Source of the DNA: an uncultured Clostridia bacterium
Lineage (GTDB): Bacteria; Bacillota; Clostridia; Lachnospirales; Lachnospiraceae
DNA: 64,000 nucleotides
Reading direction: 5' to 3'
Assembly: GCA_946403295.1 (NCBI GenBank)
Contig: CAMIZL010000004.1
Span: forward strand, 7,113-71,112
The notes below the pieces were generated by a model. The model did no database searches. It worked only from the letters and a program-made list of their open reading frames with translations, and was not told where the DNA came from. Position 1 is the first letter of the stretch; each line of letters opens with the position of its first letter. The position numbers and the translations under genes were made by a program. Shown here piece by piece: positions 39,544-53,819 of this stretch.

Positions 39544-41619
39544 ATGAAGACTTTTTTGGAATTATTGCTGAGAATGAGCGCATACGGAAGCATCGCGGTG
39601 CTTCTGGTGCTTGTGCTGCGTTTACTGTTCAAAAAGTTCCCGAAGAAGACGGTCATCCTTTTCTGGATCGTGGCTGCGATAAGGCTCGTGTGTCCCTTCA
39701 ATTTCGAGACACCCGTGAGCCTCATAAAACTCGCACCGCAAAGCGTCCGAAGCAGTCTTGAGCCTGTCGGAACAAATGATCCGCAAACAATCCTCGAAGA
39801 TATAACCCTCGGGGGAGATGCGAGTGATCCGCAAACATCCTTCGGAGGTGTGGTTTCCGAGGATAGTGCTGATCTGCGAACATCCTTCGGAGGTGTGGTT
39901 CCCGAGGATAGTGCTGATCTGCGAACATCCTTCGGAGGTGTGGTTTCCGAGGATAGTGCTGATCTGCGAACATCCTTCGGAGGTGTGGTTCCCGAGGATA
40001 GTGCTGATATGCAAACATCCCGGGGAGGTGTGGTTCTCGGGGAGGATGTGAGTAATCCACAAACATCCCTCGGAGGTGTGGTTCTCGAGGATAGTGCTGA
40101 TACACAAACATCCCGGGGAGGCGTGGTACCCGAGGATAGTGCTGATACGCAAACATCCCGGGGAGGCGTGGTTCTCGAGGATAAAGGTACGCGCGAATAC
40201 GAAACGGATGAAACGATCGGATTCGCTGTCACGGCGGTTTCCGAGGCCAACGCATCTCTTACGGGTATCATGTTCATTATATGGATCATCGGTGCTGCCG
40301 CGGTCGTTATCTATGTAACAGTCGGCTTCGTAAGAACGAACAGGCTTGTTGCGCGTCTCTTCAGACGTTCCGGCAATTATCTCGAGTCCGAACGGATCAA
40401 TACGCCGTTTGTTTGCGGCATCTTCAGTCCAAAGATCTGTGTTCCCACGTCGCTTGATATGAGTGAAAAGGATTACATGCTTCTCCATGAGCAGATACAT
40501 ATCAAAAATCATGACGCAATCGTCAAAGCGTTCGCGATTGTTGTGCTTTGCCTGCACTGGTTTAACCCGCTTGTATGGGTTGCCGTAAGGTTGTGCATGA
40601 GCGACCTCGAAATGCGCTGCGATGAGGAAGTTGTCGACATCCTCGGTGAAAGGATCAGAAAGGATTATTGCCTCTCGATCGTTAACCACGCGACTGACGA
40701 CACAAATATCCGCGTCTTTACTACGGCTTTTGCTAAGAAATCTATAAGCAGAATGGAGATCAAGATGAGGATCAAAAACCTGATAAACTATAAAAAAGTA
40801 TCAAAACTTACAACGCTCACTGTTCTTACAATAGCGCTCGCCGCAACGTTTATTCTCACGTCATGTGCAGACACTCCCGCAACCGAGGCTGCGGTTGCGG
40901 CAAACAAAAGTAACGGGGAGATCAAGATCGCGATAGGAGATACATCCGCAGCGGAAACGGGCGATACGATCGTGTATGATACAGGATCAACACAGTCCGG
41001 TTCGATTTCTGTTACGGAGGAAGTTGCGGGCGATGGCGAAACCGAGAAGACCTATATCGTAGTCAGCGATGAAAACGAGAACATTGTAAAATATGTCCGC
41101 ATCGAGAATGAAGACGGTTCGGTGGAGTACAGAAATGTTGAAACGAATGATATCGTCGGTGAAGGTGAGCTCGCTTACAGTATATCAATCAATACGACAG
41201 AAGGTGGGTTCGACGTCGTGGAAGGTGAGGATGCGGATGTAATCCTGAAATATTGCAAAGTGTATAATGACGGCATTCATGAAATTGAAAGATCAAACGG
41301 CGATAAGTTCCTTACCAGAACCTGCGAAGGTGCATATTTTGACTCGCTTGAGGAATTTAAAACCTTCTATTCCTACGATAATATCAAAAACGTCCTTGAC
41401 GGCGTGTACGAAACGGGAGATCCTCGTGTTAAGGTTGCTGCGTGGAGCCGGTTTTTAAACGAAGAGGACTGCAAGTCGGATATTGTTGAGGAGAAGAATG
41501 GCTGCTACGTCCTCACCAGAAATCTTGATAACGGAAAGATGTATTTCAGCCTGGTTTACGATTGTAAGACACACGATGTCACCAGACTTGAAAATGGAAT
41601 CCCCGATGTTGTGGGTTAA
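39544..41619 (+). CDS. M56-family (BlaR1/MecR1-like) membrane metalloprotease-fold protein with repeat insertion and non-PBP C-terminal domain
   Basis: 691 aa. Typical BlaR1 N-terminus (SAYGSIAVLLVLVLRLLFKKFPKK...FWIVAAIRLVCPF) and an HExxH motif (LLHEQIHIKNHD). A late TM helix is followed by a ~240-aa extracytoplasmic domain with no SxxK/penicillin-binding motifs. Confidence 0.8.
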   Translation: MKTFLELLLRMSAYGSIAVLLVLVLRLLFKKFPKKTVILFWIVAAIRLVCPFNFETPVSLIKLAPQSVRSSLEPVGTNDPQTILEDITLGGDASDPQTSFGGVVSEDSADLRTSFGGVVPEDSADLRTSFGGVVSEDSADLRTSFGGVVPEDSADMQTSRGGVVLGEDVSNPQTSLGGVVLEDSADTQTSRGGVVPEDSADTQTSRGGVVLEDKGTREYETDETIGFAVTAVSEANASLTGIMFIIWIIGAAAVVIYVTVGFVRTNRLVARLFRRSGNYLESERINTPFVCGIFSPKICVPTSLDMSEKDYMLLHEQIHIKNHDAIVKAFAIVVLCLHWFNPLVWVAVRLCMSDLEMRCDEEVVDILGERIRKDYCLSIVNHATDDTNIRVFTTAFAKKSISRMEIKMRIKNLINYKKVSKLTTLTVLTIALAATFILTSCADTPATEAAVAANKSNGEIKIAIGDTSAAETGDTIVYDTGSTQSGSISVTEEVAGDGETEKTYIVVSDENENIVKYVRIENEDGSVEYRNVETNDIVGEGELAYSISINTTEGGFDVVEGEDADVILKYCKVYNDGIHEIERSNGDKFLTRTCEGAYFDSLEEFKTFYSYDNIKNVLDGVYETGDPRVKVAAWSRFLNEEDCKSDIVEEKNGCYVLTRNLDNGKMYFSLVYDCKTHDVTRLENGIPDVVG
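39826..40188 (+). repeat. in-frame 45-bp tandem repeat (~8 units) inside the M56-family gene
   Basis: gatc(c/t)gc(a/g)aacatccttcggaggtgtggtt(t/c)ccgaggatagtgct units encode D(L/P/T)(R/Q)TSFGGVV(S/P)EDSA. One unit is 48 bp. Confidence 0.95.
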
Positions 41620-41705: not shown

Positions 41706-41934
41706 ATGATGTTTGAGGATGAATGAGGTTGGAAAATGGGGATGTTGAATGATGAGGGTGTTGAATGGTGAGGATGTTGAATGGTGAGGGTGTTTTGAAT
41801 GGTGGGTTCTGAATGGTGGGTGTGTTGAATGGTGGGTGTGTTGAATGGTGGATGTGCTGAATGGCGGATGTGATGAATGGCGGATGTGTTGAATGGTGGG
41901 TGTGTTGAATGGTGGATGTGTTGAATGGTGGGTG
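41706..41934. repeat. 16-bp G/T-rich minisatellite (~13 units), non-coding
   Basis: (g/a)tgtgttgaatggtgg and variants lie head to tail. Exact 16-nt spacing is verified at 41821/41837. The period is not a multiple of 3. Confidence 0.95.
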
Positions 41935-41958
41935 ATAAACAAGAGTTTGACAAACCTC

Positions 41959-42561: not shown

Positions 42562-42586
42562 TTTAAGCATCAAATCAAAAAACAGG

Positions 42587-42613
42587 CTCCGCAAAATATG
42601 CGGAGTCTTTTTT
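42587..42613 (+). terminator. rpsO intrinsic terminator
   Basis: ctccgca / aaata / tgcggag followed by tctttttt. Confidence 0.8.
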
Positions 42614-42615
42614 GT

Positions 42616-42822
42616 GCGATAAGCGAAGGCCGTCTGTTGCAAGCTTGCTTGCAATTGGATATGATACCATGGTTTGTGGTGAGAGCTTGCTCTCATGAGC
42701 AAACAGGGTATCATATCCAAAGCGGAGCGAAGCCTCGCGTACAGACGGCTGAGTGAACGGACATCGAGCGGACTTGTACGCTCGATGTCCCGTCGCATCG
42801 AGTAGGAGTCAGCCTACTCGAT
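42616..42822 (+). repeat. ~207-bp multi-hairpin dispersed element, copy 1 (candidate ncRNA or REP-like element)
   Basis: ~98% identical to 63589-63795. Starts 2 nt after the terminator T-tract. Contains stems ggatatgatacc/ggtatcatatcc, gacatcgagcg/cgctcgatgtc, atcgagtagg/cctactcgat and ggccgtctgt/acagacggc, plus two CTTG-loop hairpins. Confidence 0.9.
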
Positions 42823-42838
42823 TTCGATAAACAAATGG

Positions 42839-42931
42839 AAGCCTGTCAGGTGATAAACGAATAATAAGGAAGCCTGTCAGGTGATAAACGAATAATAAGG
42901 AAGCCTGCTAGGTGATAAATGAATAATAAGG
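42839..42931. repeat. 31-bp tandem repeat (3 units)
   Basis: aagcctgtcaggtgataaacgaataataagg occurs at 42839-69 and 42870-900, with a diverged third unit at 42901-31. Confidence 0.95.
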
Positions 42932-42988
42932 AGCTTTGTTTCGTGGAATAAACGGATTTAGAAGGCTGTCGTTACTTATATTCACGGC

Positions 42989-43017
42989 TTGATTAATACT
43001 TGTAAATCAAATAAAAT
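42989..43017 (+). promoter_or_regulatory. candidate promoter with embedded inverted repeat upstream of the DtxR/MntR-like gene
   Basis: TTGATT (42989-94), 17 nt, TAAAAT (43012-17). TTGATT...AATCAA arms bracket the spacer. Confidence 0.45.
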
Positions 43018-43057: not shown

Positions 43058-43423
43058 ATGCGTGAATCCGGAGAAATGTATTTGGAGACTATACATGTGC
43101 TTTCTAAGGAAAGGGCTGTTGTCAGGTCGATAGATGTGGCAGATCATATGAATTTTTCAAAACCATCGGTGAGCAGAGCGGTAAACAGGCTTAAGGATGA
43201 CGGCTATCTTGATATGTCTCCGGAAGGTTTTCTTACGCTCACATCGAAAGGTCTCGAGGTCGCTCAGACTATCTACGAGCGTCATGTAGTTCTTACAAAG
43301 ATTCTGGTGAAATTGGGCGTCAGTGAAGGAACGGCGGCTGAGGATGCATGCAAGATCGAGCATGACATAAGCGCCGAAACATTCGAAGCTCTCAAAAAAT
43401 ATGTAGCAGGACAAATAGATTAA
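43058..43423 (+). CDS. DtxR/MntR-family metal-dependent transcriptional regulator
   Basis: 121 aa from ATG 43058 (GGAGG 8 nt upstream). Motifs SGEMYLETIHVL, a winged-HTH region (IDVADHMNFSKPSVSRAVNRLKDDGYL) and the dimerisation helix ERHVVLTKILV...CKIEHDIS. Confidence 0.8.
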   Translation: MRESGEMYLETIHVLSKERAVVRSIDVADHMNFSKPSVSRAVNRLKDDGYLDMSPEGFLTLTSKGLEVAQTIYERHVVLTKILVKLGVSEGTAAEDACKIEHDISAETFEALKKYVAGQID

Positions 43424-43437
43424 AGGAAGTAGGTTTC

Positions 43438-44394
43438 GTGAACATTTTCTGTACTTGCTCCTCGGACGTAAAGACGCGGGGATCATATGAGGATCATATC
43501 GGAAACGCGGGACATAAGGTTGTTTCGGGGGACGCGCGCGCACTGCTCGGTGCGGACGCTTTGTTTATCTGCATAAGCGGAAAAGAAAACAGGGATGTTA
43601 AAGAAGATCTGAACCTCGCGCTTGACAGAGGTCTCCCGGTCGCTTATGTGATCGAGGACGGCGGCGTGCCCGATTCGGGACTTAGCATTCAGCTCGCTAT
43701 CGCAACGCGTATACCGGCTGAGGGCGGAAACGAAGCAGCGCCGGGATTGCCGGCCGAAAAGAACGAACGCTTCACAGAGGGCGGAAAAAACGAACGTTTT
43801 ACAACGGGCGGGGAAAACGAACGCTTCACAACGGGTGGAAAAAACGAACGCTTCACAACGGGCAAGGATAACGAGTCCGCCCAAATGACAAAGAAAGCAG
43901 TTCAAAAATGGCTCGAAACGGTGAGCGCGGGGATCGTTGCCGATAAAAAGAGGAAAAAGATAAGGACGGTTCTGGGCGCGGTTGCGATAATAGTATTGCT
44001 GGCAAGTGCGGGTGTACTTGCCACGACGCTTATGAACCGAAACGATACGGGCACATCACAGCAACCGTTAACAATACAGGAGCAGCTCGGGATCGATATT
44101 GAAACGCTTAAGAAAAGCGAGAAGATCGACCTTTCGGGAAAAGGGCTCGAAGACATTTCGTTTTTATCGGGATGCAAGGAGTGTAAGGAGCTCGACATAA
44201 GCGGTAACGCGATAAGCGATATAAGCGTTTTGAGCGAACTTGAGAACATCAGGGTCCTCAATATTTCGGGAAACAGGATCAATGACATAAACGTTCTTTT
44301 GACACTGAAAAATCTTGAGGAAGTCGATATCAGGGATAATCCGATCAGCGATTATACGGCGACATCGTTCCTCGGATGCGTTGTTATTCAATAA
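43438..44394 (+). CDS. single-pass membrane protein: N-terminal TIR-like module, 9-aa repeats, TM helix, C-terminal leucine-rich repeats
   Basis: 318 aa with a GTG start 8 nt after AAGGAAG. NIFCTCSS...ADALFICISGKENRDVKEDLNLALDRGLPVAYVIEDG parallels the TIR block of the next gene. TM helix IRTVLGAVAIIVLLASAGVLATTL. LRRs L-x2-L-x-(I/L)-S-G-N-x-I-x-D-I-x-x-L occur about four times. Confidence 0.7.
   Translation: MNIFCTCSSDVKTRGSYEDHIGNAGHKVVSGDARALLGADALFICISGKENRDVKEDLNLALDRGLPVAYVIEDGGVPDSGLSIQLAIATRIPAEGGNEAAPGLPAEKNERFTEGGKNERFTTGGENERFTTGGKNERFTTGKDNESAQMTKKAVQKWLETVSAGIVADKKRKKIRTVLGAVAIIVLLASAGVLATTLMNRNDTGTSQQPLTIQEQLGIDIETLKKSEKIDLSGKGLEDISFLSGCKECKELDISGNAISDISVLSELENIRVLNISGNRINDINVLLTLKNLEEVDIRDNPISDYTATSFLGCVVIQ
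43762..43869 (+). repeat. in-frame 27-bp tandem repeat (4 units) encoding NERFT(E/T)GG(K/E)
   Basis: aacgaacg(c/t)tt(c/t)aca(g/a)(a/c)gggxgg(a/g)aaa units start at 43762, 43789, 43816 and 43843. Confidence 0.9.
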
Positions 44395-44427
44395 ACGGGC
44401 ACAAGCACAGGCGGGAGGAAGTTGGGT

Positions 44428-46617
44428 ATGAGCAGACCTACGGCTTACAAAGGAAACGAAAAGTACATTTTTGTCAGTTATGCGCATAAGGACAGCGATG
44501 ACGTGCTACCGATCATTGAGGCGCTTCAGAGCGCATCGTATCGCGTGTGGTATGACGAGGGCATCGATCCCGGAAAAGATTGGGCGGGTGTCATCGGAAC
44601 GAACATCGAGAAGGCGGGCATCGTCCTTTTTTGCGCTTCGAAGAAGTCGGTCAAGAGGGATAACGTAAAGCGCGAGATAGCATTTGCGCATGAGAAGGGG
44701 ATACCCGTTCTCACGGTGACGATCGGGAACGTGAGCTTCCCTGCGGATCTTGAGAAGATCCTTTTCGTAAATCAGACCGTTTCGCTCAGAAGCTTTAAGA
44801 CCTACGGAGAATTCGTCGATGCGATCGCGGGTGTTTTAAGGGATGCGGGAACATATGCGACCGTGGCCGGAGCGGGCGGGGCGCCTCTCGGAAGGAAGAT
44901 CATGCTCGGCGCCAAATTAAAGCGCAGGAAGATCATCGTAAGGATCCTGGTTGCGCTCGCCGTTATTGCGGTTTTAGCTGTTGCGACATTCTTTATCGCA
45001 TTTAAGGATGTCCCCGACGTTATTGACATGGATACGCAAACAGCACGCGAAATGATAGAAGAAGCGGGCTTTGATTGTGATATAAGTAACGATTATTCCG
45101 ATACATATCCGTTCGGAAAGATATTCGCACAGAGCAGGAACGGTATCAACTTCCGTTTCATGCCCGTCATCATCAGGCAGAGTCTCGGACCCAAGGAAAA
45201 TCTGACCGATGTGCCCGACACCGTAACACATCATATCAGTGATGCGGCAACCATGCTTATCACCGCGGGCATGAAGAAATTTGAGATCTCACCCACACTC
45301 GGCACGGGCAGGGAGAATGCACATGTCGATGCGCAGAGCATACCTGCGGGACTTAGAGTGTCAAGAGACAATGTGATCGATCTTGAGGTCGCAACGGACG
45401 GTGGCGAGATCGTATTCGAGATCGCGGGCAAGTACTACGTGATCCGCGGAACCGCACCTGTAACCGTTGATGCGGATGATACGAGCAACCTAGAGCTTTA
45501 TGACGATCCTTCCGCTGTGCGCGCCGGCTCGGGTGATGATGACAAGAGCGGAACTGACGATCGCTCCACAATTGCCGATACGACATCCGGGGACGATGAG
45601 ACGGGTTCGGATGAAGCCGATGCAAACGACACGGAAGCCGAAAATGCGAATGAGACTGATAATGCAAATGACGCCGATAATGCGGATGAGGCCGATAATG
45701 CGGATGAGGCCGATGAATTGGCAGAGGGTGCATATGATAACGAAGTTGCGGAAGAAGTAGTTCCGGCTCCGACACCGACACCTACCCCTGTGCCTACGGC
45801 AACACCGACACCCACTCCCGTACCTACGGCAACACCGACACCTACTCCCGTGCCTACTGCAACGCCTACTCCCACACCTACTCCGAAGCCCACCGCAACA
45901 CCTACACCGACTCCCGTATCGGCGAAGTACAACAGCCTCGGCGGGAACAAGTGGGAGGTTTATAATCAGGCGGCCATGCAGGAGATCCATGATATGCCCA
46001 TGACTGCAGCGGAAGCCCGGTCGTACGGTGACGAATGGTTCGAAGGAGAGCACGCCAACGAAACATACAGCACTAACATGAAGATCATGGATGACTTTAC
46101 GATCAACACGGATCTGGGAGGGCTTTGGACTGTCGAAGTTCCTTCGGGAAGGACGCTTACGATCGCAAAGGGCGGTTTGCTTCAGGCGTGCGTTACTATA
46201 CAAAAGGGCGCAAAGATCGTTGTTGAATCGGGCGGCAAGCTCTGGTGTACACAGGGTGGTGAAGAGTGCATCATGAATTACGGCACCGTTGATGTCAAGT
46301 CGGGCGGACAGATCCAGAGTATGTTCGGAGGAACCTTTAACAACCTTTCGGGCGCGACACTCAATCTGAACGGAACCTTTAACTGCGGATCCGTTATGCA
46401 TAACGTGACTCCCGACGGCTCGATGGACCGTGCTGTATGGTTCGTGAACAAGGGAACCGTTAAGGGCAGCGGAAAAGCAACCATCTTCGGAGCTTTCCTC
46501 GGAAAATATACCGATGAGGAGATAGATGAATTCTTTAACTGGGGTGAGGAACAGCTCGCTGAAAGGCTCGGAAACAGCAGTATCACGACGAGTCAGAACA
46601 GGGATTATGATCCGTAA
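44428..46617 (+). CDS. single-pass membrane TIR-domain protein with extracytoplasmic PASTA-like modules, PT-rich linker and Gly-rich C-terminal domain
   Basis: 729 aa from ATG 44428 (GGAGG 9 nt upstream). TIR_2-like block ([41 protein letters not shown]...[33 protein letters not shown]). TM helix [29 protein letters not shown]-like [21 protein letters not shown] and [21 protein letters not shown]. Then a (PTPTPxPTAT)n linker. Confidence 0.85.
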
Positions 46618-46636
46618 CAGACTGTACGCACAAAGA

Positions 46637-46702
46637 CGGATAAGCACAACACTACAGTATACACAACGCCGGATAAGCACAACACTACAGTATGCACAAC
46701 GC
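46637..46702. repeat. 33-bp tandem duplication (2 units) just after the TIR-PASTA stop codon
   Basis: cggataagcacaacactacagtat(a/g)cacaacgc occurs at 46637-69 and 46670-702. Confidence 0.95.
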
Positions 46703-46707
46703 TTTTC

Positions 46708-46771
46708 CTGCCACGTGTATTTTTCCAAAAACGCTGACGCCGAATTGTTTTTGGGAAAACACACGGTCGCG
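46708..46771. repeat. dispersed ~65-bp hairpin element (copy B)
   Basis: ctgccacgtgtatttttccaaaaacgctgacgccgaattgtttttgggaaaacacacggtcgcg is ~90% identical to 28458-28522. Confidence 0.9.
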
Positions 46772-46797
46772 GAAAAGCTCGTCAACAATTTGGAAGA

Positions 46798-48441
46798 GTG
46801 AAGGAAAAAGAAACGTTGAAGAAACATTGTATTCCCCTTGTCCTGGGAGTTACGGGACACAGGGACATCACTCCTGATGACGCCAGACTCGCCCGGGATG
46901 TCGTGAAAAAAGAGATCAAGAGGCTCGCGGCACTTGCTCCCGACACTCCTTTGGAGCTGCTCTCGAGCCTTGCGGCGGGGGCGGACAGGATCGTTGCAGA
47001 GGTGGCTCTTGAAGAAGGGATACCTCTCACTGTCATCCTCCCCATGAAGTCGGAGCTTTACGAGGAGGACTTTAACCCCGAAGAGATCACGGAGTACAGG
47101 GAGCTTCTCTCACGCGCATCAAACGTCTTCGTTGCGCCCGAGATCGAGGATCACAAAGAAGGTCGCGACTTCCTCTACCGTCAGGCCGGGATCTACGTAG
47201 CATCGCATTCACATGTGCTCATAGCGCTCTGGGACGGTTCGGAGCCGAAACGCGGGGGATGCGGAACCGCTGAGACAGTGGACATCAAGCTCAAGGGAAG
47301 CCTCGAACTCAGCAAGGCACCGGGCTTTTCTCCCGAGAAAGGCTACGTGATACATATCCCTGTAAGAAGAGGTGGAGTGGAACCTTTCCCCGAAAGGACC
47401 ATCACACCGAACTATCTCGGAGATGAGAAGACCTTTAACAGAGTTATCGAAAGAACTGAAGAGTTTAACAGGAGCGCCATGAAGCTCGCCACGAAGGGAG
47501 AAATCGCATCGCAGGCTTCACTCGCCGGGTCGGAGCATGATACCGGGAACGAGCGCGCTTTCGAGCGTATGTCGAGGGTCGGATGCGCAGCGGATCTCAG
47601 CAGTGTGAAGGGAGCCGGGAGACACAGGATCACGGTCGGGTTGATCGCCGTGATGGCGACGCTCCTTACGATGTCGTTCCTTCTTTATGATGAAGCAAAC
47701 ATTCATTACCTGATCGTTGGCTGCGGCGTGATGATCGTGGGTATATACGTTCTGAACCTGCTTGCCCGGAAGCGTGACTTCCATCGCAAGTATCTTGAGT
47801 ACAGACTGCTCGCGGAGGCGCTTCGTGTTCAGAGCGCACTTATCGAGGCAGGTGTTTATGCCGAGACCTTCGAGATGCTCTCGTGGGCACAGAAGCTCGA
47901 GACACCGTGGATCAGCCGTGCGCTGGCTGCTATCTGCATCTACGATCCCGATTCGCTCACGCTGACCGGTACGACTGTCAACTGGATCAACGGACAGCTC
48001 TCGTATCATAAGCGAGCTGTGGAACGCGCCAAGGCTCAGTCGAAAGCGAACGACAGGATAGTGCACGTCGCTGTCGCGATCACCGTGGCAGTGTACATGG
48101 CGGCACTCGTGTTCGAGATCTTCTGGGCAGGAACCTTCGGAGGAAGCGCGAAGCTAAAAGAAGTCGACGCCGAGTTCGTAAGGACCATCTTCAAGCTTGC
48201 CACCGGGTCGCTCTCGGCGATCTCGCTCTTTGCCGGAAGTTATTACGGCAAGCTCTCGCTTGACCAGTGGGCGCGCGATTCCGAAAGAATGGTGCTGCTC
48301 TATGAGGAAGCAAACGCAGCCAAGGAGAACTGCCGCGACCTCGGAGAGCTTTGTGTGAGCCTCGCAAGGGAGGAGTTGTCGGAGAACATGCGGTGGTACG
48401 CGTACCAGAGCGTAAACAGTCCCGACACGCCTATCAGTTGA
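46798..48441 (+). CDS. SLOG/LOG-like Rossmann domain fused to four TM helices (two SLATT-like 2TM units)
   Basis: 547 aa. The start is uncertain: GTG 46798, or TTG 46816, which has better spacing from GAAGGAAA. N-terminal motifs LGVTGHRD, AAGADRIVAEVALEEGIPL, LIALWDG and RGGCGTAETV. TM pairs are ITVGLIAVMATLLTMSFLLY with YLIVGCGVMIVGIYVLNLL, and VHVAVAITVAVYMAALVFEIF with FKLATGSLSAISLFAGSYY. Each pair is followed by an amphipathic helix. Confidence 0.7.
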   Translation: MKEKETLKKHCIPLVLGVTGHRDITPDDARLARDVVKKEIKRLAALAPDTPLELLSSLAAGADRIVAEVALEEGIPLTVILPMKSELYEEDFNPEEITEYRELLSRASNVFVAPEIEDHKEGRDFLYRQAGIYVASHSHVLIALWDGSEPKRGGCGTAETVDIKLKGSLELSKAPGFSPEKGYVIHIPVRRGGVEPFPERTITPNYLGDEKTFNRVIERTEEFNRSAMKLATKGEIASQASLAGSEHDTGNERAFERMSRVGCAADLSSVKGAGRHRITVGLIAVMATLLTMSFLLYDEANIHYLIVGCGVMIVGIYVLNLLARKRDFHRKYLEYRLLAEALRVQSALIEAGVYAETFEMLSWAQKLETPWISRALAAICIYDPDSLTLTGTTVNWINGQLSYHKRAVERAKAQSKANDRIVHVAVAITVAVYMAALVFEIFWAGTFGGSAKLKEVDAEFVRTIFKLATGSLSAISLFAGSYYGKLSLDQWARDSERMVLLYEEANAAKENCRDLGELCVSLAREELSENMRWYAYQSVNSPDTPIS

Positions 48442-48720
48442 ACGGCGCGGTGTATCCTTTTGTACTAATGAACAAATTGTTGGATTTGTTGATATTTTAC
48501 GCAAAATTGTGTAACCGGTAGGATTTTGATAACAATATGGTTAATTCAAATGGTTTTAAACGCAAAGATAGAGACAGTAGATGTGGGTATCGTTTTACAA
48601 CAAAACGTTGAGGCACGTACAATTATTCTACAGTAATTTTACTTGTAGAAAGCAAATTCAACAGCTAGAATCATGATAGATACGCAGCCCGGGAACAGTC
48701 CCGGGGAAAGGGGAATTGTC

Positions 48721-49611
48721 ATGAAGAGAACAGTTTATTTAACGCTTATGCTGATCGGGCTTATGGCAGCCTGCATTCTTACGGGATGCAAATCCGGGAC
48801 AAAGCTCGAAAACCTTGTCGTTGACAAAGAGAATAATATTATTTCATGTGAGTATGAGGGCGTTAAACGCGAAATCATCGTAAGTCTGCCCGAAACGGCG
48901 AAGAATGCTCCGCTTATCGTCATGCTTCATGGGGCCGGGGATTCGGCAGACAACTTCCTAAAATCCTCGGGGTTTGACAAAGAAGCGAACGAAAAGGGCT
49001 ATGCTGTCTGCTTTATCTCCGGTTCGATCAATTCGAAGGCAGGAAGAAATTCGCGCAGCTGGAACTATGGAAGGATCGATACCGACTATGATGATGTTTC
49101 GTTCATAAAGGAAGTGGTAAAGTACGTCTGCGATGAGTATTCGCTTGACGATGATGATGTCTACTGCGCGGGATTCTCGAACGGAGGTTTCATGAACTTC
49201 AGGCTCGCGCTTGAGGCTCAGGACGTGTTTAAGGCCTGTGTCAGTGTCGGGGGCGATCTCTGTAAGACTCTCTGGAACAAGAAACCCGAAAAGAATGATG
49301 TGAGTTTTATGGCCGTGGCCGGCGAAAAGGACGAGTCGGTTCCAAAAAACGCTGATGGGACGGCCAAGACTTCACTTGATCCCGCGATCGAGGACGTTAT
49401 AGAGTATCTTGCCGATTCGAACGGGCTCGCAAAGCAGTCCGAGAGCGAAATCGGAAAGGGGTCGACCATAGTTAAATACGGTGCGGACGGTGACAATGAT
49501 GCCGTATGGTATGTGGTTGTTAAGGATGGGAAGCACGGATGGCCGACAGTGAAACTTAATGATTTCAGTATGAATCAGTTGGTACTGGAGTTCTTCGCAA
49601 GTATTAAATGA
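48721..49611 (+). CDS. lipoprotein alpha/beta-hydrolase (esterase/PHB-depolymerase-like)
   Basis: 296 aa from ATG 48721. Lipobox (AACILTGC), oxyanion region (IVMLHGAG) and nucleophile elbow (GFSNGG). Confidence 0.8.
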   Translation: MKRTVYLTLMLIGLMAACILTGCKSGTKLENLVVDKENNIISCEYEGVKREIIVSLPETAKNAPLIVMLHGAGDSADNFLKSSGFDKEANEKGYAVCFISGSINSKAGRNSRSWNYGRIDTDYDDVSFIKEVVKYVCDEYSLDDDDVYCAGFSNGGFMNFRLALEAQDVFKACVSVGGDLCKTLWNKKPEKNDVSFMAVAGEKDESVPKNADGTAKTSLDPAIEDVIEYLADSNGLAKQSESEIGKGSTIVKYGADGDNDAVWYVVVKDGKHGWPTVKLNDFSMNQLVLEFFASIK

Positions 49612-49976: not shown

Positions 49977-52900
49977 ATGAAACAGTTTATTAAACGACTT
50001 GTTGTTTTTGCTGTTGCTTTTACACTTGTCATCGGCTTATTGCCCGGTAACAGTGCGGAAGCAGCTTCGAAGAAGAGCAAGAAGAAGACGATCGTCGTAA
50101 CAACACAGGAAGAACTTGTTGCTGCACTTAAGAAGTACGGTTCTTCAAATTCAAAGGTAAAGATCAAGATTGAAACTACCGAAGCAAGTACTTTTACACT
50201 CAGCGCAAAGTACAGCTCGGACAGTATTCAGATCGTAGTTGATGCTCCCAATGCCACCATTAAGAGTAAGGCAAAGGTTTCGAGCATTACCATCAATGAA
50301 GCAAAGTCCGTTAAGGAATATGCTTCGGGTAACAAGATCACCGTCAACGATGAGAAGCTTACCTTTACCGCCATGGAGAATGCTTCGGTTGAGAAGCTGA
50401 CGATCGCCTCCGAGACAGGTACCGTTAAGGTTGTCAACAACGGTGGGATCGAGAAAGTTGCCGTTAAGAGCGAAGTTAAGGTCGACTTAACACAGAACGG
50501 TGAAATGGGACGTGTTTATGTCGGTGCAGCCGCTGACATAAGCGTTAGCGGAACGTCCGAGGAGAGCCTTAAGGTTACGGTTCAGAAGGATGCAGTCGGT
50601 GCGTCGGTTAAGTCCGAAGTTCCGGTCAGTGTTAACGCCTATGCTGACGTTGATCTTACACTCGAGAAGGGTGCCGAGAGCTCAAAGGTCACAATGAAGG
50701 AAGAGACCGCGGGCGTTAAGCTTGAGAACAAAACTGAAGAGACGATATCCGTAAAGGATACCGAAGGAAATACCCAAAAGGTTGAAACGGGCGAGGAGAT
50801 CACCTCGGACAATTATGTCGGAAAGCAGGATGAGACAACCGAAAAGCCCCCTGTTGTCGAAGATGAAAAGAAGGAAGAAGAGAAGAAGGAAGAGGAAAAG
50901 AAGCCTGAGCCTACAAATGCTCCTTTGCCCACACCCGATCCCGAACCCTACGTTCCTTATGTAAGTCCCGAAGAACAGTTGCAAGACAAGCTTACAGCAG
51001 CAGGAAAATCGCAGAACGACGGAGAAGCATGGCTTACCCAAAACATCACGCTCAAAAAGGATCTTTATGTTCCTTCCGGCGTGGGTCTTGTCCTTGACGG
51101 ATATACGCTCAATGCAGATTCAAACAAGATAGTACTTGGGCCTGATGCGAGGATCGTATTGTTCCCCGGAAGTAAGCTTATTGTCGGAAATGACCCGTTT
51201 ATTTATGAAGATGACGGCAAAGGATTCAATCATGTTGAATTCCAGCTTGAGTTTGATGCGTCTATACAGATCGGAGATTACACCATCGTCGGTATTGGCA
51301 GTGATTTTGATCCCGTTGCGACAAGGATAATCATTGAAACAAGTCTCAGGCATGAAATGGTTCGACAGTATCCGGAGGAAGAGGTCAGTGATTCAAATCC
51401 TGAAAGTGAATTAATTTTTACGGAAAGAAATGTAAGATTCGATTTCATGGGTGAATCGTTCGATATTTTCACCGAATCCGGAACCTATGAAGGATTTGCC
51501 GGGGTTTTCGGTGGAGACAGAGCATATTGGGTCGATATGGACGGAGACTACAGGCCGCAGAACGGAGAAACGCTCACAAGCCTTGAGATCAATCCTCTTT
51601 CAAATGTTCTTTATGACGAGAGAAAAGTGACGTTTAAGGGTAAAACGATTTATAGTGCAACTGTCGGAGTAGAGGACTGGCTTAATGTTTATCTTGATCC
51701 CGATATGGTTTGGTCCGCATTTAAAGCGGTCGAGCAGAAAAGGGCAGTTCCCGACGTTATCGAAGTACCTGAAAAAGAAGGGGATCCTCTGGTAGTTACC
51801 ATACCTGGGCCGATAACACTGACGAAGAATGTTTATGTTCGCAAAGGTGCTACGCTTATCGCGGATGAGATAAATTATGCCCTGTCAGACCCTGTTCAAG
51901 GACCCGTGGGCGGAGATCTTTTGAATGCTCCCGGAATCAGTGTGAGAGGAACTCTCAAAATAAACAGGATCACTTCCACCGGAAGCATTGATGAGAATCA
52001 GGAACTCATTAAGATGCAGGGTGCGGACAGTATTCTTGAGATGGGTGGCAAAATCTATAAGATCGATACAAATGATCAGAGATTTACAGATGATCCGAAT
52101 GCTACCGCTTATTCGTATTTCTGCTGGAATATCCCCAAGCAGTATTATGGGTATCAGTTATACACATGGGAGTTTGAGGAAGGATTTAAAATCCTTTGTT
52201 CCAATGATGACGGAGAGAATTTCGTTGAAGTTGTAAAACATCCTTTCGAGGCAGAGCTTGTGACACCCGATACCCTACTTGTAACCAAGGATTCGGATCA
52301 GGTTTACAGCCTTATACAGAGCACATCAAGATGGATGGACTGGTCGGATACGGATGAATTTAAAGATGAGATCTATGCCGGCAAAACACTTGATGAGAAA
52401 TATGCTATAGCAGCCGGTGACAGACTTGACTTCACCTCGGCAACTCTCTCGGCGCAGGATAAAAATGGGAATAAAGTGCCTCTGGTAATAGAGGAATTTG
52501 TGAGAGATGAGGAAGGCGAATTAACAGATGAACGCACATGGCTGGAGGTCTGCGGAATGACTCTGACGGCAGATCCCGAAATCACGGTTACATTGGCATC
52601 CGGTGCCGAGATGAGAATCAGACGCGGATCGAACCTGATCATGGAATCAATAAGTGCCGATAACGCAGGAAAATTTATTCTCGGAAGCACTCTTAGGAAA
52701 AATGATAAGGGCGAAAATGAGATAGACAGATCCGGAAGGATCACTGTTGATTGGGGCGGAAAGGTCACAATCGGAAATTATGTTTTTGCAACACAGAATT
52801 ATCAAAATGATTTTGATAGCGGTAATTTCGGACTTTCGCTTGATGTAGTTACGGATGGAAAGGGCAGTCCTGTGGTCAGGATGCAGATTCCCGAGAATAT

Positions 52901-53819
52901 CATCATAACCACACTTGACGGCAGCTCTGTAACAGCAGAAGGTCTTAATGCATTAGGAATGAAGATTGAGATCTCTAACAAAGAACAAATGGACGAGAAG
53001 GACGAGATCAAACGAAACGGTATATTCCCGTCGATCAGTCTCGGAAATGATCGCTTACTGTTCGTTACAAGAGACGGAGGACAGTTCGCAGAAGGAAAAG
53101 TCACCTTCGCGAACTCAAGCACAGATAACGGAGAATTTGTTGCGGGATCGATCGAAGACCTGAAAGCAATCAGCCTCTACATTAAGGGCATTAACGGTGA
53201 AGCAGGAAGAGGTTATCCTGACGATAAAGGCATAACCATCTCTTATGTATCGGATAGTGACAAAGTTAGTTTTGATGCCATTACACTTGATCTGATGGGT
53301 AAGATTGTATTTAGCGACAATATTACAGAGATCGGCCTTGCTAATCGATCCAAAGTGACAGTTTCGATGGAAGTAAAGAGCGGATGCAGGCTGCAGGTCG
53401 GGAGTGATTGTTATCTGGGAACCTCAAAGGTCGACGATACAGTGATCTACGGAAATCTCTCGATTTATGATAGAGGCGTGTTCAGATCTCAGATGGATCA
53501 TGGGCTCGTGATCGCCAGCGGTGCTTCGTTCCATATCGGGAATGGTCGTTTTGAGTGCGAATGCGTAAGATACCCTGTCGAAGGTCAATCGGAGACTTAC
53601 AGTTATGTGTTCGGGTTCGCTAATAACAGTGATAATTTAACCTTAAATGGTCAGGGCGGAATCTTTGTATTTGTTGAATATAAAGACGGTGCTCCGGAAT
53701 TTACCGATGATGAGTTTAATACTCTTTTAAATCATGTCCGAGGAGAAGCTCGCGAAAAACTATCGGTTTATAAGTACACTGAACCGGAACAGCCCGCAGC
53801 GGAGGCACCCAGAACGTGA
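49977..53819 (+). CDS. very large secreted protein of unknown function
   Basis: 1280 aa with RBS AAAGGAGG and a signal peptide (RLVVFAVAFTLVIGLLPGNSAEA). Then a Lys/Glu and Pro-rich spacer (EKKEEEKKEEEKKPEPTNAPLPTPDPEP). I recognise no catalytic motif, and the region is visibly A+T-richer than neighbouring housekeeping genes. Confidence 0.75.
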   Translation: MKQFIKRLVVFAVAFTLVIGLLPGNSAEAASKKSKKKTIVVTTQEELVAALKKYGSSNSKVKIKIETTEASTFTLSAKYSSDSIQIVVDAPNATIKSKAKVSSITINEAKSVKEYASGNKITVNDEKLTFTAMENASVEKLTIASETGTVKVVNNGGIEKVAVKSEVKVDLTQNGEMGRVYVGAAADISVSGTSEESLKVTVQKDAVGASVKSEVPVSVNAYADVDLTLEKGAESSKVTMKEETAGVKLENKTEETISVKDTEGNTQKVETGEEITSDNYVGKQDETTEKPPVVEDEKKEEEKKEEEKKPEPTNAPLPTPDPEPYVPYVSPEEQLQDKLTAAGKSQNDGEAWLTQNITLKKDLYVPSGVGLVLDGYTLNADSNKIVLGPDARIVLFPGSKLIVGNDPFIYEDDGKGFNHVEFQLEFDASIQIGDYTIVGIGSDFDPVATRIIIETSLRHEMVRQYPEEEVSDSNPESELIFTERNVRFDFMGESFDIFTESGTYEGFAGVFGGDRAYWVDMDGDYRPQNGETLTSLEINPLSNVLYDERKVTFKGKTIYSATVGVEDWLNVYLDPDMVWSAFKAVEQKRAVPDVIEVPEKEGDPLVVTIPGPITLTKNVYVRKGATLIADEINYALSDPVQGPVGGDLLNAPGISVRGTLKINRITSTGSIDENQELIKMQGADSILEMGGKIYKIDTNDQRFTDDPNATAYSYFCWNIPKQYYGYQLYTWEFEEGFKILCSNDDGENFVEVVKHPFEAELVTPDTLLVTKDSDQVYSLIQSTSRWMDWSDTDEFKDEIYAGKTLDEKYAIAAGDRLDFTSATLSAQDKNGNKVPLVIEEFVRDEEGELTDERTWLEVCGMTLTADPEITVTLASGAEMRIRRGSNLIMESISADNAGKFILGSTLRKNDKGENEIDRSGRITVDWGGKVTIGNYVFATQNYQNDFDSGNFGLSLDVVTDGKGSPVVRMQIPENIIITTLDGSSVTAEGLNALGMKIEISNKEQMDEKDEIKRNGIFPSISLGNDRLLFVTRDGGQFAEGKVTFANSSTDNGEFVAGSIEDLKAISLYIKGINGEAGRGYPDDKGITISYVSDSDKVSFDAITLDLMGKIVFSDNITEIGLANRSKVTVSMEVKSGCRLQVGSDCYLGTSKVDDTVIYGNLSIYDRGVFRSQMDHGLVIASGASFHIGNGRFECECVRYPVEGQSETYSYVFGFANNSDNLTLNGQGGIFVFVEYKDGAPEFTDDEFNTLLNHVRGEAREKLSVYKYTEPEQPAAEAPRT

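Follow-up and report, generated by a model that had tools for sequence, protein, structure and literature searches.

A putative membrane-embedded TIR signalling cassette with LRR and PASTA ectodomains and a SLOG-4TM protein in a rumen Lachnospiraceae bacterium

Organisation of the locus

The analysed window, a 64,000-nucleotide stretch from a rumen Lachnospiraceae bacterium, carries a cassette of three consecutive genes on the forward strand at 43438-48441 (Table 1), with the open reading frames checked at these coordinates. A promoter-like site, located downstream of a strong rpsO terminator (42584-42608), likely marks the start of the transcription unit, within which no terminator was predicted. 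The metalloregulator preceding the cassette comprises 121 aa counted from ATG, and gene 1 begins 14 nt beyond its end. The coordinates, the MntR match and the promoter scan agree with the initial annotation, made from the sequence alone, of three same-strand reading frames behind a DtxR/MntR-like regulator and a promoter-like site. An MntR-type regulator occupies the same position only within the synteny group of the window (loci L001, L003 and L017-L019), and is peculiar to the cassette as found in this lineage. In the lineage of the window the cassette is placed after infB-rbfA-truB-ribF-rpsO, an arrangement that is syntenic across relatives, and in this it appears more vertically inherited than defence islands typically are. 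Comparison of the relatives also revealed mosaic recombination and changed gene order at the cassette locus. The 33-bp repeat in the spacer between genes 2 and 3 may be a rearrangement scar, and in L017 an esterase gene is inserted between the orthologues of these two genes. The esterase gene found in the window adjoins the cassette constantly, in this lineage only, and its membership in the system is uncertain.

Table 1. Positions of the cassette genes, their domains and neighbouring features within the window, with the basis of each assignment.
Feature	Position	Strand	Basis or description
Promoter-like site, sigma-70-like	42989..43017	+	9/12 consensus match, consensus scan only
DtxR/MntR-family metalloregulator	43058..43423	+	Fe_dep_repress 5e-15, Fe_dep_repr_C 8e-13, NCBIfam MntR 1.4e-25
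Gene 1	43438..44394	+	318 aa, GTG start
Gene 1 shortened TIR-like domain, aa 1-100	43438..43737	+	hhalign, homologue bridge, Glu-column census
Gene 1 tandem repeat, 27-bp x 4.1, in-frame	43752..43863	+	encodes NERFTxGG four times
Gene 1 TM helix, aa 177-199	43966..44034	+	hydropathy; Lys/Arg 6 on N-terminal side, 1 on C-terminal side
Gene 1 extracellular leucine-rich repeats, aa ~206-318	44053..44391	+	LRR_4 1.4e-11, LRR_8 1.3e-7, internalin-type NCBIfam matches
Gene 2	44422/44428..46617	+	731 aa from TTG at 44422
Gene 2 TIR domain, aa 16-117	44467..44772	+	Pfam TIR_2 2.3e-17
Gene 2 TM helix, aa ~170-193	44929..45000	+	hydropathy and model
Gene 2 extracellular PASTA region, aa 196-350	45007..45471	+	PASTA 2.7e-12 (aa 196-238), PknB_PASTA_kin aa 168-326
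Gene 2 C-terminal extracellular beta-rich (solenoid-like) domain, aa 506-731	45937..46614	+	pLDDT about 90, many short strands
Tandem repeat, 33-bp x 2.2	46629..46702	.	in the 180-nt spacer, gene 2 to gene 3
Gene 3	46798..48441	+	547 aa; SLOG fused to 4TM SLATT-like membrane module
Gene 3 SLOG (YpsA-like) domain, aa 1-208	46798..47421	+	model, Foldseek, family alignment
Gene 3 membrane region, aa 275-485	47620..48252	+	4 TM helices: hydropathy (3), model (1)
Gene 3 first hairpin, aa 275-345	47620..47832	+	DUF4231/SLATT match
Alpha/beta-hydrolase (esterase), lipoprotein-type	48673..49611	+	profile matches and neighbourhood comparison

Architecture of the encoded proteins

Gene 1 is predicted to encode a type II membrane protein: a degenerate TIR-like domain lies in the cytosol, followed by a linker with repeats and a single TM helix, and a short LRR domain is extracellular. 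Its TIR-like N-terminus was not detected in the Pfam search and matched the gene 2 TIR in BLASTP with an E of 0.009 only; hhalign against the TIR profile of the cassette gave a probability of 96.9% (E 1.8e-10), and the L088 homologue bridges the two, as it matches both the gene 1 N-terminus and TIR profiles. The position of the catalytic Glu is occupied by Asp (VKED vs VKRE). The NERFTxGG motif, already noted four times in the initial annotation, is present as a tandem repeat within the cytosolic linker, which is poorly conserved among orthologues.

For gene 2, the ATG at 44428 is a likelier start than the TTG. The product is likewise a predicted type II membrane protein, in which a cytosolic catalytic-type TIR and one TM helix are followed by extracellular PASTA modules, a PT/acidic linker and, at the C-terminus, a beta-rich domain. 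The catalytic-position Glu85 is encoded at 44674-44676, and both R84 and E85 are invariant across 25 TIR-PASTA homologues. Foldseek related the TIR domain to TIRs with NADase or cyclase activity, namely SPARTA TIR-APAZ (3.9e-5) and AbTir (TM 0.81), and the PrkC ectodomain 3py9 was also among the matches of gene 2. The TM helix is preceded by six Lys/Arg and followed by one Lys/Arg and four Asp/Glu, the PASTA region shares 88-90% identity between orthologues, and the model places a disordered PT-rich linker between this region and the C-terminal domain. The latter gave no match to Pfam or PDB sequences, and is weakly similar to the C-terminus of the ORF 49977-53819 (E 0.002). The TIR_2, LRR and PASTA domains proposed for genes 1 and 2 were recovered by the profile searches, with the gene 1 TIR-like domain recognised by hhalign, and the layout proposed for gene 2 stood, its C-terminal domain being modelled as beta-rich.

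In 79 of 91 TIR-TM proteins, the side of the helix that bears the TIR is the richer in Lys/Arg (mean 3.95 vs 1.19), and the ratio across the TM helix is 6 vs 1 in both proteins of the window. This charge bias places the TIR in the cytoplasm, in line with the inside/outside topology suggested at the outset, with the ectodomain outside. The catalytic Glu is retained in 34/42 mid-size TIRs and in all five gene 2-like TIRs, and in just 3/30 short and 1/14 long TIRs, the gene 1 group having Asp or Asn. Of the two TIR enzymes assumed earlier, only gene 2 retains the catalytic Glu, gene 1 being a degenerate TIR.

Gene 3 encodes a predicted signal receptor and effector, modelled with a pLDDT of 90.7 and a pTM of 0.90. 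The presumed SLOG-like module was borne out by the model and by Foldseek, with YpsA 2nx2 as the best match (E 8.3e-5, TM 0.63) and ShosA, DprA and the ThsA SLOG with 3'cADPR 7uxs (probability 0.99) as further matches. The Gly-rich loops GVTGHRD, AAGAD, (AL)WDG and (G)GCGTAE, on which that assignment had been based, are invariant columns in the alignment of the 52-member gene 3 family, 19 members of which match the YAcAr profile. By hydropathy, three segments stand out clearly as hydrophobic (aa 277-298, 300-324 and 419-448), and a fourth TM helix at about aa 455-485 was derived from the model and inspection. From the two 2TM units proposed initially, the four TM helices and the DUF4231/SLATT character of the first hairpin can be retained, but the second hairpin is not detectably a duplicate of the first (hhalign probability 0.2%) and DUF4231 fits the first only. 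The DUF4231 match of gene 3 itself (5.4e-4, 20.8 bits) lies under the Pfam cut-off of 24.7 bits; within the family, DUF4231 matches 29/52 members (best 1.3e-6) and SLATT_3 two. Neither PADLOC nor NCBIfam defence models matched gene 3.

Gene linkage among relatives

The linkage of the genes was followed within the gene 3 family, in 41 species-representative loci flanked on either side by 8 kb or more of sequence. TIR genes were located at most 10 kb away in 28 loci, 21 of which carry at least two, and in 75 of the 87 TIR proteins near gene 3 homologues an N-terminal TIR is followed by a TM helix. A gene for a RyR-domain protein, a partner absent from this window, adjoins the gene 3 homologue in 29/41 loci, and 7/41 lack TIR and RyR neighbours alike. 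Amid unrelated genes, L106 again carries the whole trio, with a TIR-PASTA protein, an LRR protein of the gene 1 type and a homologue of gene 3, and TIR-PASTA occurs together with a gene 1-type LRR protein in L103 and L105. The TIR/gene 3 linkage, which the initial annotation had suspected, is not due to chance, and the co-conservation of the three genes marks them as parts of one system, not as neighbours by chance. On a Caballeronia plasmid, a homologous SLOG-DUF4231 protein, 36% identical to gene 3 in the SLOG domain (E 1e-18), is accompanied by a soluble TIR and an nSTAND1 (STAND) NTPase. Among 128 genes flanking 44 TIR-bearing cassettes, PADLOC gave scattered generic matches only and no defence-island signal.

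Proposed mechanism and alternative explanations

We lean, with slightly better than even confidence, towards a membrane-embedded, Thoeris-like TIR signalling cassette with outward-facing sensors. A path from TIR through SLOG to a membrane effector, the generator-sensor-effector logic put forward in the initial annotation, is the best reading of the cassette and is partly supported; its biological role would most likely lie in conflict or defence. NAD-derived signalling is a putative part of it, and the muropeptides or phage named in the initial annotation are candidate ligands. Gene 2 would be the enzyme-competent sensor, with the PASTA and beta-rich domains outside and the catalytic-Glu TIR inside, gene 1 a paralogue serving as co-receptor, whose LRRs lie outside and whose shortened, Glu-less TIR lies inside, and gene 3 the receiver and effector, with a cytosolic YpsA-type SLOG joined to the SLATT-like 4TM module. 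A surface or wall ligand might cluster the ectodomains and let the cytosolic TIRs meet, the live and the dead TIR jointly forming the composite active site on which TIR enzymes depend. NAD+ would then be converted to an ADPR-derived second messenger and bound by the SLOG domain of gene 3, whereupon the 4TM module would open or oligomerise, depolarising or permeabilising the membrane and causing growth arrest or death. RyR-domain proteins of phages were recently shown to bind or to cleave the isomers 2'/3'cADPR (PMC13232231), and together with this the frequent RyR neighbours support an ADPR-type signal, while the Caballeronia pairing strengthens the generator-sensor-effector logic across phyla.

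Several observations point the other way, namely the sub-threshold DUF4231 score of gene 3 and the lack of defence by 'SLOG and 4TM' candidates in E. coli, the seven gene 3 loci devoid of TIR and RyR genes, with some loci in housekeeping surroundings (e.g. ptsI), and the solitary TIR-PASTA genes, a PASTA conservation unlike that of a rapidly diversifying pathogen receptor, and the zero defence-model matches of gene 3, the missing defence-island signal around the cassettes and the vertical-looking synteny.

Part of these also favour a rather unlikely alternative, in which the same wiring has a physiological instead of an antiviral role, monitoring the envelope or cell division, and SLOG-4TM is a ligand-gated channel or regulator, not a suicide pore; the ligands would then be peptidoglycan precursors or muropeptides for PASTA and surface or neighbour-cell proteins for the LRRs. 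Besides the strongly conserved PASTA region, the absent defence-island signal and the synteny among relatives, it is consistent with the housekeeping surroundings of the locus itself and of two out of five more distant TIR-PASTA genes, which are solitary, and with a single relative found among 2.9 million viral contigs. PASTA modules otherwise occur in penicillin-binding proteins and PknB/PrkC-type kinases watching the cell wall, YpsA, the closest solved SLOG relative, is a Bacillus cell-division regulator (PMC6459960), and in Clostridia the TIR clade of the cassette also occurs in fusions with FtsZ/tubulin, FtsK, kinase and FHA domains. However, SLATT modules and TIR-SLOG pairs have so far been documented in conflict systems only, and the LRR receptors, of which a cassette may hold as many as four paralogues differing greatly in size, suggest recognition diversity. 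The plasmid pairing with a STAND NTPase, one cassette that adjoins AbiEii and smpB, and the mosaic recombination and gene-order change at the locus argue in the same direction.

It is less probable still that the membrane TIRs are themselves the effectors, depleting NAD+ on ectodomain engagement with no diffusible signal, and that gene 3, as a SLOG enzyme or a membrane protein, is functionally separate and accompanies them on other grounds, e.g. NAD/ADPR salvage or immunity. NADase activity is indeed widespread among bacterial TIRs (SPARTA, CBASS and Pycsar effectors), the gene 2 TIR finds its best structural matches in SPARTA TIRs, TIR-PASTA genes sometimes occur without a SLOG gene, and some SLOG domains, such as LOG, are enzymes; but the TIR/SLOG-4TM linkage is strong in both directions and often extends to RyR, both the SLOG and the RyR fold are known to bind cADPR isomers (PMC13232231), and a SLOG-SLATT-like fusion is a typical sensor-effector layout. 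A fortuitous adjacency of three unrelated functions, for which the sometimes lone members of each family and the 180-nt spacer between genes 2 and 3 might speak, is very improbable, being contradicted by the co-occurrence over dozens of species in unrelated neighbourhoods and by a unit with no predicted internal terminator.

Relation to known systems

The favoured Thoeris-like reading has experimentally established counterparts, i.e. TIR with SLATT in type VII Thoeris and TIR with a SLOG effector in types I, III and IX (bioRxiv 10.64898/2025.12.03.692087). Moreover, the 2025 preprint of Yirmiya et al. lists 'SLOG and 4TM' effectors among unverified candidates, two of which gave no phage defence when tested in E. 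coli. The term 'undescribed' in the initial annotation was therefore too strong. In the literature we found no description, for such systems, of extracytoplasmic LRR/PASTA sensing, of paired live and dead TIRs or of a frequent RyR-domain partner. The SLOG domain of gene 3 shares the fold with which ThsA of Thoeris binds 3'cADPR, and the combination of TIR, SLOG and membrane effector is Thoeris-like, whereas the sensors differ in facing outwards. The cassette looks like Thoeris-type immune signalling wired to the cell exterior.

Organisation of the locus

The ORF list agrees with the initial annotation in placing four genes in a row on the + strand, namely a DtxR/MntR-type regulator followed by gene 1 (degenerate TIR-TM-LRR), gene 2 (TIR-TM-PASTA) and gene 3 (SLOG-4TM). 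The transcription unit starts beyond the rpsO terminator, with a promoter-like site 5' of the regulator gene, and our search for terminator-like sites from the regulator to gene 3 found none. The intergenic gaps measure 14 nt (regulator/gene 1), about 30 nt (gene 1/gene 2) and 180 nt (gene 2/gene 3); the probable start of gene 2 is the ATG at 44428. The segment from the rpsO terminator to the promoter-like site holds a series of palindromes and a 31-bp tandem repeat, and an Rfam search of the whole window, this segment included, yielded no family at gathering score. A second, 33-bp repeat in the gene 2/gene 3 spacer may be a rearrangement scar or a regulatory site. Further repeats were observed within a BlaR1-type gene and in the spacer ahead of rpsO.

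Features of the window and of compared loci (L-numbers) that carry relatives of its genes; positions without prefix refer to the window
Feature	Position	Strand	Description
BlaR1/peptidase M56-type membrane sensor	39544-41619		1.9e-43
Tandem repeat in BlaR1-type gene	39825-40183		45 bp x 7.9, in frame
Repeat array in spacer ahead of rpsO	41735-41936		16/64-bp repeat, fills the spacer
rpsO terminator	42584-42608		strong
Short palindromes	42620-42830		four in series, ahead of the 31-bp repeat
Tandem repeat	42837-42932		31 bp x 3.1, GGAAGCCTGTCAGGTGATAAACGAATAATAA, 95% matches
Promoter-like site	42989-43017		5' of the regulator gene
Regulator, DtxR/MntR-type	43058-43423	+	Fe_dep_repress 5e-15, Fe_dep_repr_C 8e-13, NCBIfam MntR 1.4e-25
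Gene 1	43438-44394	+	ORF, 318 aa
Gene 2	44422-46617	+	ORF, 731 aa
C-terminal ectodomain of gene 2	45937-46614		beta-rich in the model
Tandem repeat in gene 2/gene 3 spacer	46629-46702		33 bp x 2.2
Gene 3	46798-48441	+	ORF, 547 aa
Secreted protein	49977-53819		1280 aa
HD_5 protein	54064-55821		ordinary HD-family protein
RyR-partner genes	L005:6335-8062, L009:5998-7980, L013:6201-7967, L015:6092-7834		outside the window; 25 further loci
Esterase gene of L017	L017:8974-9995		between gene 2 and gene 3 orthologues
Metallo-beta-lactamase-fold gene, two copies	L105:306-953, L105:10404-11051		215 aa
Standalone 4TM homologue P0115	L097:7001-7939
Caballeronia sp. SBC2 plasmid pSBC2-4 locus (L100)	NZ_CP049320.1 21462-34010

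Domain architecture of the three proteins

Gene 2 carries TIR_2 at aa 16-117 (2.3e-17) and PASTA at aa 196-238 (2.7e-12) according to Pfam, and its aa 168-326 match the NCBIfam model PknB_PASTA_kin (1.8e-11). The AlphaFold model comprises the TIR domain (pLDDT ~88), a TM helix (aa 163-193), a disordered stretch (aa 367-500) and a confident beta-rich domain (aa 500-731). Using Foldseek, we matched the TIR domain to the enzymatic TIRs of SPARTA TIR-APAZ (3.9e-5) and of AbTir with a substrate analogue (TM-score 0.81); further matches of gene 2 were plant and animal TIRs, TLR TIR domains among them, and the PrkC PASTA ectodomain 3py9. R84 and E85 are invariant across 25 TIR-PASTA homologues, E85 being the Glu at the TIR NADase catalytic position. 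For the beta-rich C-terminal domain, Pfam and PDB sequence searches gave nothing and the Foldseek list was taken up by TIR matches. Across 133 aa the domain is 25% identical (E 0.002) to the C-terminus of the adjacent secreted protein of 1280 aa, a weak likeness, and Pfam has a family for neither.

The C-terminus of gene 1 belongs to LRR_4 (1.4e-11, Pfam), and a single TM helix spans aa 177-199. Pfam detected no TIR at its N-terminus, and BLASTP against gene 2 gave just E 0.009 across 31 residues. Comparison of the gene 1 N-terminal profile with the profile of cassette TIRs gave 96.9% probability (E 1.8e-10), and a homologue in L088 matches both profiles (gene 1 N-terminus 1e-41, TIR 3e-6). 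From the profile-profile alignment and this bridging homologue we conclude that the gene 1 N-terminus is a TIR, shortened and divergent, with Asp replacing the catalytic Glu.

The gene 3 model (pLDDT 90.7, pTM 0.90) opens with an alpha/beta domain (aa 1-208), after which come long helices. Its structural matches were YpsA (E 8.3e-5, TM 0.63), ShosA, DprA and LOG proteins, and the ThsA SLOG with 3'cADPR (7uxs) was recovered with probability 0.99 and E 0.049. With a Rossmann-like fold, Gly-rich loops and these matches, the N-terminal domain is by its predicted structure a member of the SLOG superfamily, with the YpsA clade nearest. The original account of SLOG and SLATT domains is that of Burroughs et al. 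2015 (NAR). In the membrane part, a hydropathy scan shows three clear hydrophobic segments, the fourth membrane helix coming from the model. DUF4231, which we take to be a member of the SLATT clan, matches gene 3 with 20.8 bits, under the 24.7 cut-off, and 29 of the 52 family members (best 1.3e-6), while SLATT_3 matches two and YAcAr 19 of the 52 (gene 3 by itself, E 0.058). Proteins of about 314 aa, made up of the equivalent of just the 4TM half of gene 3, were also observed (P0104-P0118); around one of them, P0115, the one locus examined showed no TIR or SLOG neighbours.

The initial annotation is thus confirmed overall, with two corrections. Pfam, NCBIfam and the model between them bear out the TIR_2-type module, TM helix and PASTA modules it had described in gene 2, and the motifs it quoted from gene 3 are invariant columns of the 52-sequence family alignment. 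The short TIR-like module, TM helix and LRRs of gene 1 were borne out, the TIR being degenerate. Gene 3 keeps its SLOG and four TM helices and loses the two SLATT-like 2TM units: comparison of the two hairpins gave an hhalign probability of 0.2% and the second hairpin matches nothing, so they are not detectable duplicates and a reading as duplicated SLATT units is unsupported.

Membrane topology and live and dead TIRs

To assign the sides of the membrane, we counted Lys and Arg in the 15 residues on each side of the TM helix in 91 non-identical cassette proteins that carry the TIR N-terminally, ahead of this helix. An excess before the helix was found in 79 of them (mean 3.95 before and 1.19 after), and genes 1 and 2 each have six before and one after. 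Given this bias and the positive-inside rule, the TIR domains are predicted to be cytosolic and the LRR and PASTA parts to lie outside, in line with the outward ectodomains and inward TIRs proposed at the outset. The topology also agrees with the extracytoplasmic location of PASTA domains in all characterised proteins that we know of. Gene 2 thus has the PASTA repeat(s) of a surface sensor outside its TM helix, the side being assigned by charge bias.

Which residue aligns with Glu85 of gene 2 depends on the class of TIR protein. Glu is kept in 34/42 mid-size proteins, in all five gene 2-like proteins and in 11/12 soluble proteins with an internal TIR, and in only 3/30 proteins of the ~280 aa class and 1/14 of those above 850 aa; the gene 1 group has Asp or Asn. 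On the basis of this census each cassette is predicted to combine a single enzyme-competent TIR with at least one paralogue that is enzyme-dead. In Clostridia the gene 2 TIR clade also occurs fused to RyR, FtsK, FtsZ/tubulin, Ser/Thr kinase and FHA domains (P0153, which is RyR+TIR, P0156, P0162, P0179, P0181, P0183 and P0196), which points to a wider use of this clade in membrane- or division-associated signalling.

Conservation and gene linkage

A word-indexed search for the gene 3 family returned 212 proteins, and an exhaustive profile search returned 2,483 clusters (50% identity) at E <= 1e-30 and 7,363 at E <= 1e-10. Counting one genome per species, there are at least 529 gene 3 relatives, the best 80 of which are nearly all from rumen and gut Clostridia MAGs; among the relatives listed, the closest to the window is the Lachnospiraceae MAG RGIG2755 from goat omasum (gene 3 identity 95%). 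As for a taxonomic reach to Streptomyces and Nitrospira, cluster look-ups returned Bacillota names only. Pfam, NCBIfam and PADLOC all lack an annotation for the SLOG-4TM effector family, and searches of the latter two with gene 3 found no model. PADLOC, one of the checks proposed with the initial annotation, had no match for gene 3; for genes 1 and 2 its matches were generic, of TIR or kinase type.

Linkage was counted with local TIR, RyR-partner and gene 3 profiles within 10 kb of gene 3 relatives in 41 loci, each representing a species and flanked by 8 kb or more on either side. A TIR gene was present in 28 loci, the majority of them with at least two; an RyR-domain gene accompanied the TIR genes in 23 and was missing in five. 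Six further loci had the RyR-domain gene and no TIR gene, and seven had neither. Of the 87 cassette TIR proteins, 75 place the TIR N-terminally, ahead of a TM helix. Five genes make up the typical cassette, encoding a TIR-TM protein (~280 aa), a TIR-TM-LRR protein (~390 aa), a degenerate TIR-TM-LRR protein (1000-1280 aa), a soluble protein with HD-like motifs and an RyR domain (575-720 aa) and the SLOG-4TM protein (~530 aa). A reduced cassette without the RyR gene is found in the window and its close relatives L001, L003 and L017-L019.

The reverse test started from five more distant TIR-PASTA homologues (40-50% identity). One locus (L106) has the full trio again, flanked by mscL and citrate lyase genes in unrelated surroundings. 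A second (L105) has the TIR-PASTA gene and a gene 1-type LRR protein together with an LRR-TIR, two further TIRs, the RyR partner and a SLOG-only gene, and in a third (L103), which lies at a contig end, the TIR-PASTA gene is again accompanied by a gene 1-type LRR protein. The remaining two TIR-PASTA genes are solitary, amid housekeeping genes. From the gene 3 and the TIR-PASTA side together, the counts show the cassette to be a real, modular system in which linkage is not obligatory; the co-conservation of TIR genes with the SLOG-4TM gene, on which the original proposal depended, does hold. The large cassette of L105 is bracketed by two copies of a metallo-beta-lactamase-fold gene, consistent with insertion of the cassette or with duplication around it.

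The RyR-domain partner and a cross-phylum pair

The soluble RyR partner adjoins the gene 3 family in 29 of the 41 full-flank loci, sometimes without a nearby TIR gene. Its C-terminus is of the RyR Repeat12 type: Pfam matches reach 1.3e-15, and a PDB profile match at E 2e-23 also aligns the HExW motif. Its N-terminal ~500 aa show, by eye only, the HD-like motifs RDHYxHS, LFHDIGYP and LCDELQxW. A 2026 report describes binding or cleavage of 2'/3'cADPR by RyR-domain proteins of phages (PMC13232231); by analogy, the partner may be a second receiver or a signal-clearing enzyme, and it offers a cellular context for the newly reported cADPR binding of RyR domains. A tblastn search of the window with four partner proteins found nothing, and gene 2 shows no similarity to these proteins. 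The HD_5 protein of the window, considered as a candidate partner, is unrelated to them.

In a locus on a Caballeronia plasmid (L100), a 577-aa SLOG-DUF4231 protein adjoins a soluble 539-aa TIR_2 protein and an nSTAND1 NTPase whose annotation reads WD40 repeat protein. Its SLOG is homologous to that of gene 3 (36% identity, E 1e-18), and its DUF4231 match of 30.9 bits lies over the cut-off. Judging from this pair, the TIR/SLOG-SLATT pairing crosses phyla, with the sensor, cytosolic in the plasmid locus, as the changing part.

Proposed mechanism and biological role

We determined the domain identity, topology, catalytic-residue pattern and gene linkage of the cassette, and we infer its activity, ligand and phenotype. 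In the best-supported mechanism, binding of an extracytoplasmic ligand would lead to assembly of the cytosolic TIRs, the assembled TIRs would produce an NAD-derived messenger, and the gene 3 SLOG would read this messenger, upon which the membrane module would respond. A messenger of the ADPR type would fit the established Thoeris layouts of a TIR with a SLOG or SLATT effector, the Caballeronia pair, the frequent RyR partner and the RyR+TIR fusion P0153.

The locus of the window (43438-48441) is a mosaic with respect to L001, L003, L017, L018 and L019. Genes 1 and 2 are nearest to those of L003 and L019 (TIR 92%, PASTA 90%, gene 1 72-76%). In L017 and L001 lie the nearest relatives of the C-terminal domain of gene 2 (96%), of gene 3 (85-95%) and of the esterase. 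This pattern implies that recombination broke the locus within the low-complexity linker of gene 2 or close to it. In L017, the closest relative, an esterase gene sits between the gene 2 and gene 3 orthologues; gene order has therefore been rearranged. Faster evolution of gene 3 was also considered, but its identity to L003 and L019 (51-57%) does not differ clearly from that of the flanking esterase (59-62%), and therefore mosaic recombination alone was retained.

This mosaic structure would suit a role in conflict or defence, as would the multiple receptor paralogues of variable size, one cassette that adjoins AbiEii and smpB, and component families documented so far in conflict systems only. 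The genomic setting argues the other way: the locus lies 3' of infB-rbfA-truB-ribF-rpsO and is syntenic among relatives, and PADLOC matches among 128 genes around 44 cassettes were scattered and generic, a weak negative obtained with no background control. Moreover, the Streptomyces and Nitrospira representatives of the 'SLOG and 4TM' class, two systems tested by others, gave E. coli no defence (Yirmiya et al., bioRxiv 10.64898/2025.12.03.692087).

Alternatively, the cassette could have a physiological role rather than one in defence. Its neighbours in the window are housekeeping genes, and orphan genes of both kinds likewise sit amid housekeeping genes. The PASTA region is highly conserved, the gene 3 SLOG is nearest to YpsA, a division regulator (PMC6459960), and fusions with FtsZ, FtsK and kinase domains occur in the TIR clade of gene 2. 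The family is also essentially missing from viral contigs: IMG/VR gave one relative, and matches in phage genomes were SLOG-domain fragments only. On plasmids, matches were to the SLOG part only. If the role is not defence, this would be the first nucleotide second-messenger pathway leading from PASTA/LRR surface sensing via a TIR enzyme.

A more specific form of the defence reading, which we offer tentatively and consider rather unlikely, is that Clostridia of the rumen and gut have a prokaryotic equivalent of receptor-type innate immunity. Outer LRR and PASTA domains would respond to an outside cue, for instance the adsorption of a phage, damage to the wall, or another cell that attacks or makes contact, and would activate live/dead TIR hetero-oligomers whose NAD-derived messenger would gate a SLOG-coupled channel and, in most versions, would also be read or cleared by the HD-like RyR-domain protein. 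If true, this would be outside-in Thoeris-type signalling and a bacterial precedent for the animal cADPR-RyR and ADPR-TRPM2 logic.

To our knowledge, and in the papers searched, the Thoeris systems characterised so far detect phage intracellularly by means of soluble TIR proteins; TIRs tethered to outward domains of a Gram-positive cell could raise the alarm at the surface, before or without genome entry.

Comparison with known systems

The cassette is a relative of the TIR-SLOG/SLATT (Thoeris-like) systems, whose layout is already known. Of the features that define Thoeris, a TIR protein with the catalytic Glu is present in gene 2 and lost in gene 1, an adjacent effector with a domain that would bind a TIR product is provided by the predicted SLOG fold of gene 3, and the conserved operonic TIR-effector association exists without being obligatory, as orphans of both kinds occur. 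A further feature, enrichment beside known defence genes, was not seen in the PADLOC scan of the 128 flanking genes. What appears to be new is the outward LRR/PASTA sensors on TIR proteins, the pairing of live and dead TIRs and the cellular RyR partner, none of which we found described in the literature searched.

The nearest described layout is 'SLOG and 4TM', an unverified candidate Thoeris class in which a TIR gene lies beside an effector with SLOG and four TM helices, as in gene 3 (Yirmiya et al., bioRxiv 10.64898/2025.12.03.692087, Tables S1/S2). The likeness of the two effectors is one of described architecture. TIR excerpts of the class (Streptomyces sp. GKU 895 and Ca. Nitrospira nitrosa) match the cassette TIR profile with 2e-9 and 2.5e-8, about as well as type III TIRs do, so that these matches do not tell the classes apart. 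The Caballeronia locus probably belongs to this candidate class. Unlike the TIRs in its description, those of the window are membrane-anchored, carry ectodomains and form a live and dead pair; LRR, PASTA, RyR and Lachnospiraceae are unmentioned in that paper and its supplements.

Type VII Thoeris pairs a ThsB TIR with the SLATT effector ThsH, the signal being canonical cADPR (bioRxiv 10.64898/2025.12.03.692087). Its TIR generator acts with a SLATT-family membrane effector, proposed to breach the membrane upon binding the TIR product, and in this it resembles the cassette with its putative SLATT-like module. ThsH is described as a SLATT-domain protein only, with a ligand pocket modelled between SLATT protomers, whereas gene 3 has a separate N-terminal SLOG and only its first TM hairpin resembles DUF4231, under the cut-off; the text consulted mentions no TM helix or ectodomain for type VII TIRs, unlike those of the window. 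In type I Thoeris, ThsB acts with the SIR2-SLOG effector ThsA through 3'cADPR, and types III and IX also have SLOG effectors (bioRxiv 10.64898/2025.12.03.692087). The shared element is a SLOG that receives a TIR-made ADPR isomer, and type III also has several TIR paralogues. However, the window TIRs are anchored in the membrane, the output of gene 3 is a membrane module and not SIR2, and YpsA is structurally nearer to its SLOG than ThsA is.

With the phage RyDEP/RyR Repeat12-domain proteins (PMC13232231), the partner shares its Repeat12-type RyR domain, but it is cellular, has a large N-terminal HD-like region and is missing from the window. Gene 2 resembles the PknB/PrkC/StkP kinases in its one TM helix and in outer PASTA repeats, which report the cell wall inward, the cytosolic module being a TIR instead of a kinase. 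With animal Toll-like receptors, the cassette shares single-pass proteins with LRRs outside, a TIR inside and non-identical TIR partners. Gene 1 has this combination with a degenerate TIR, and numerous proteins of the cassettes have it with an intact one (e.g. a 402-aa protein in L005). This is an analogy of architecture only, with no evidence for common descent of the whole arrangement. The order is reversed, with an N-terminal TIR and type II topology, and since gene 2 keeps the catalytic Glu, its TIR would be expected to signal enzymatically, in the plant and bacterial manner, rather than by adaptor recruitment. With LRRs outside, one TM helix, a TIR inside and a dead TIR partner, the cassette is like animal Toll-like receptors by architecture and would be like plant TIR receptors by chemistry.
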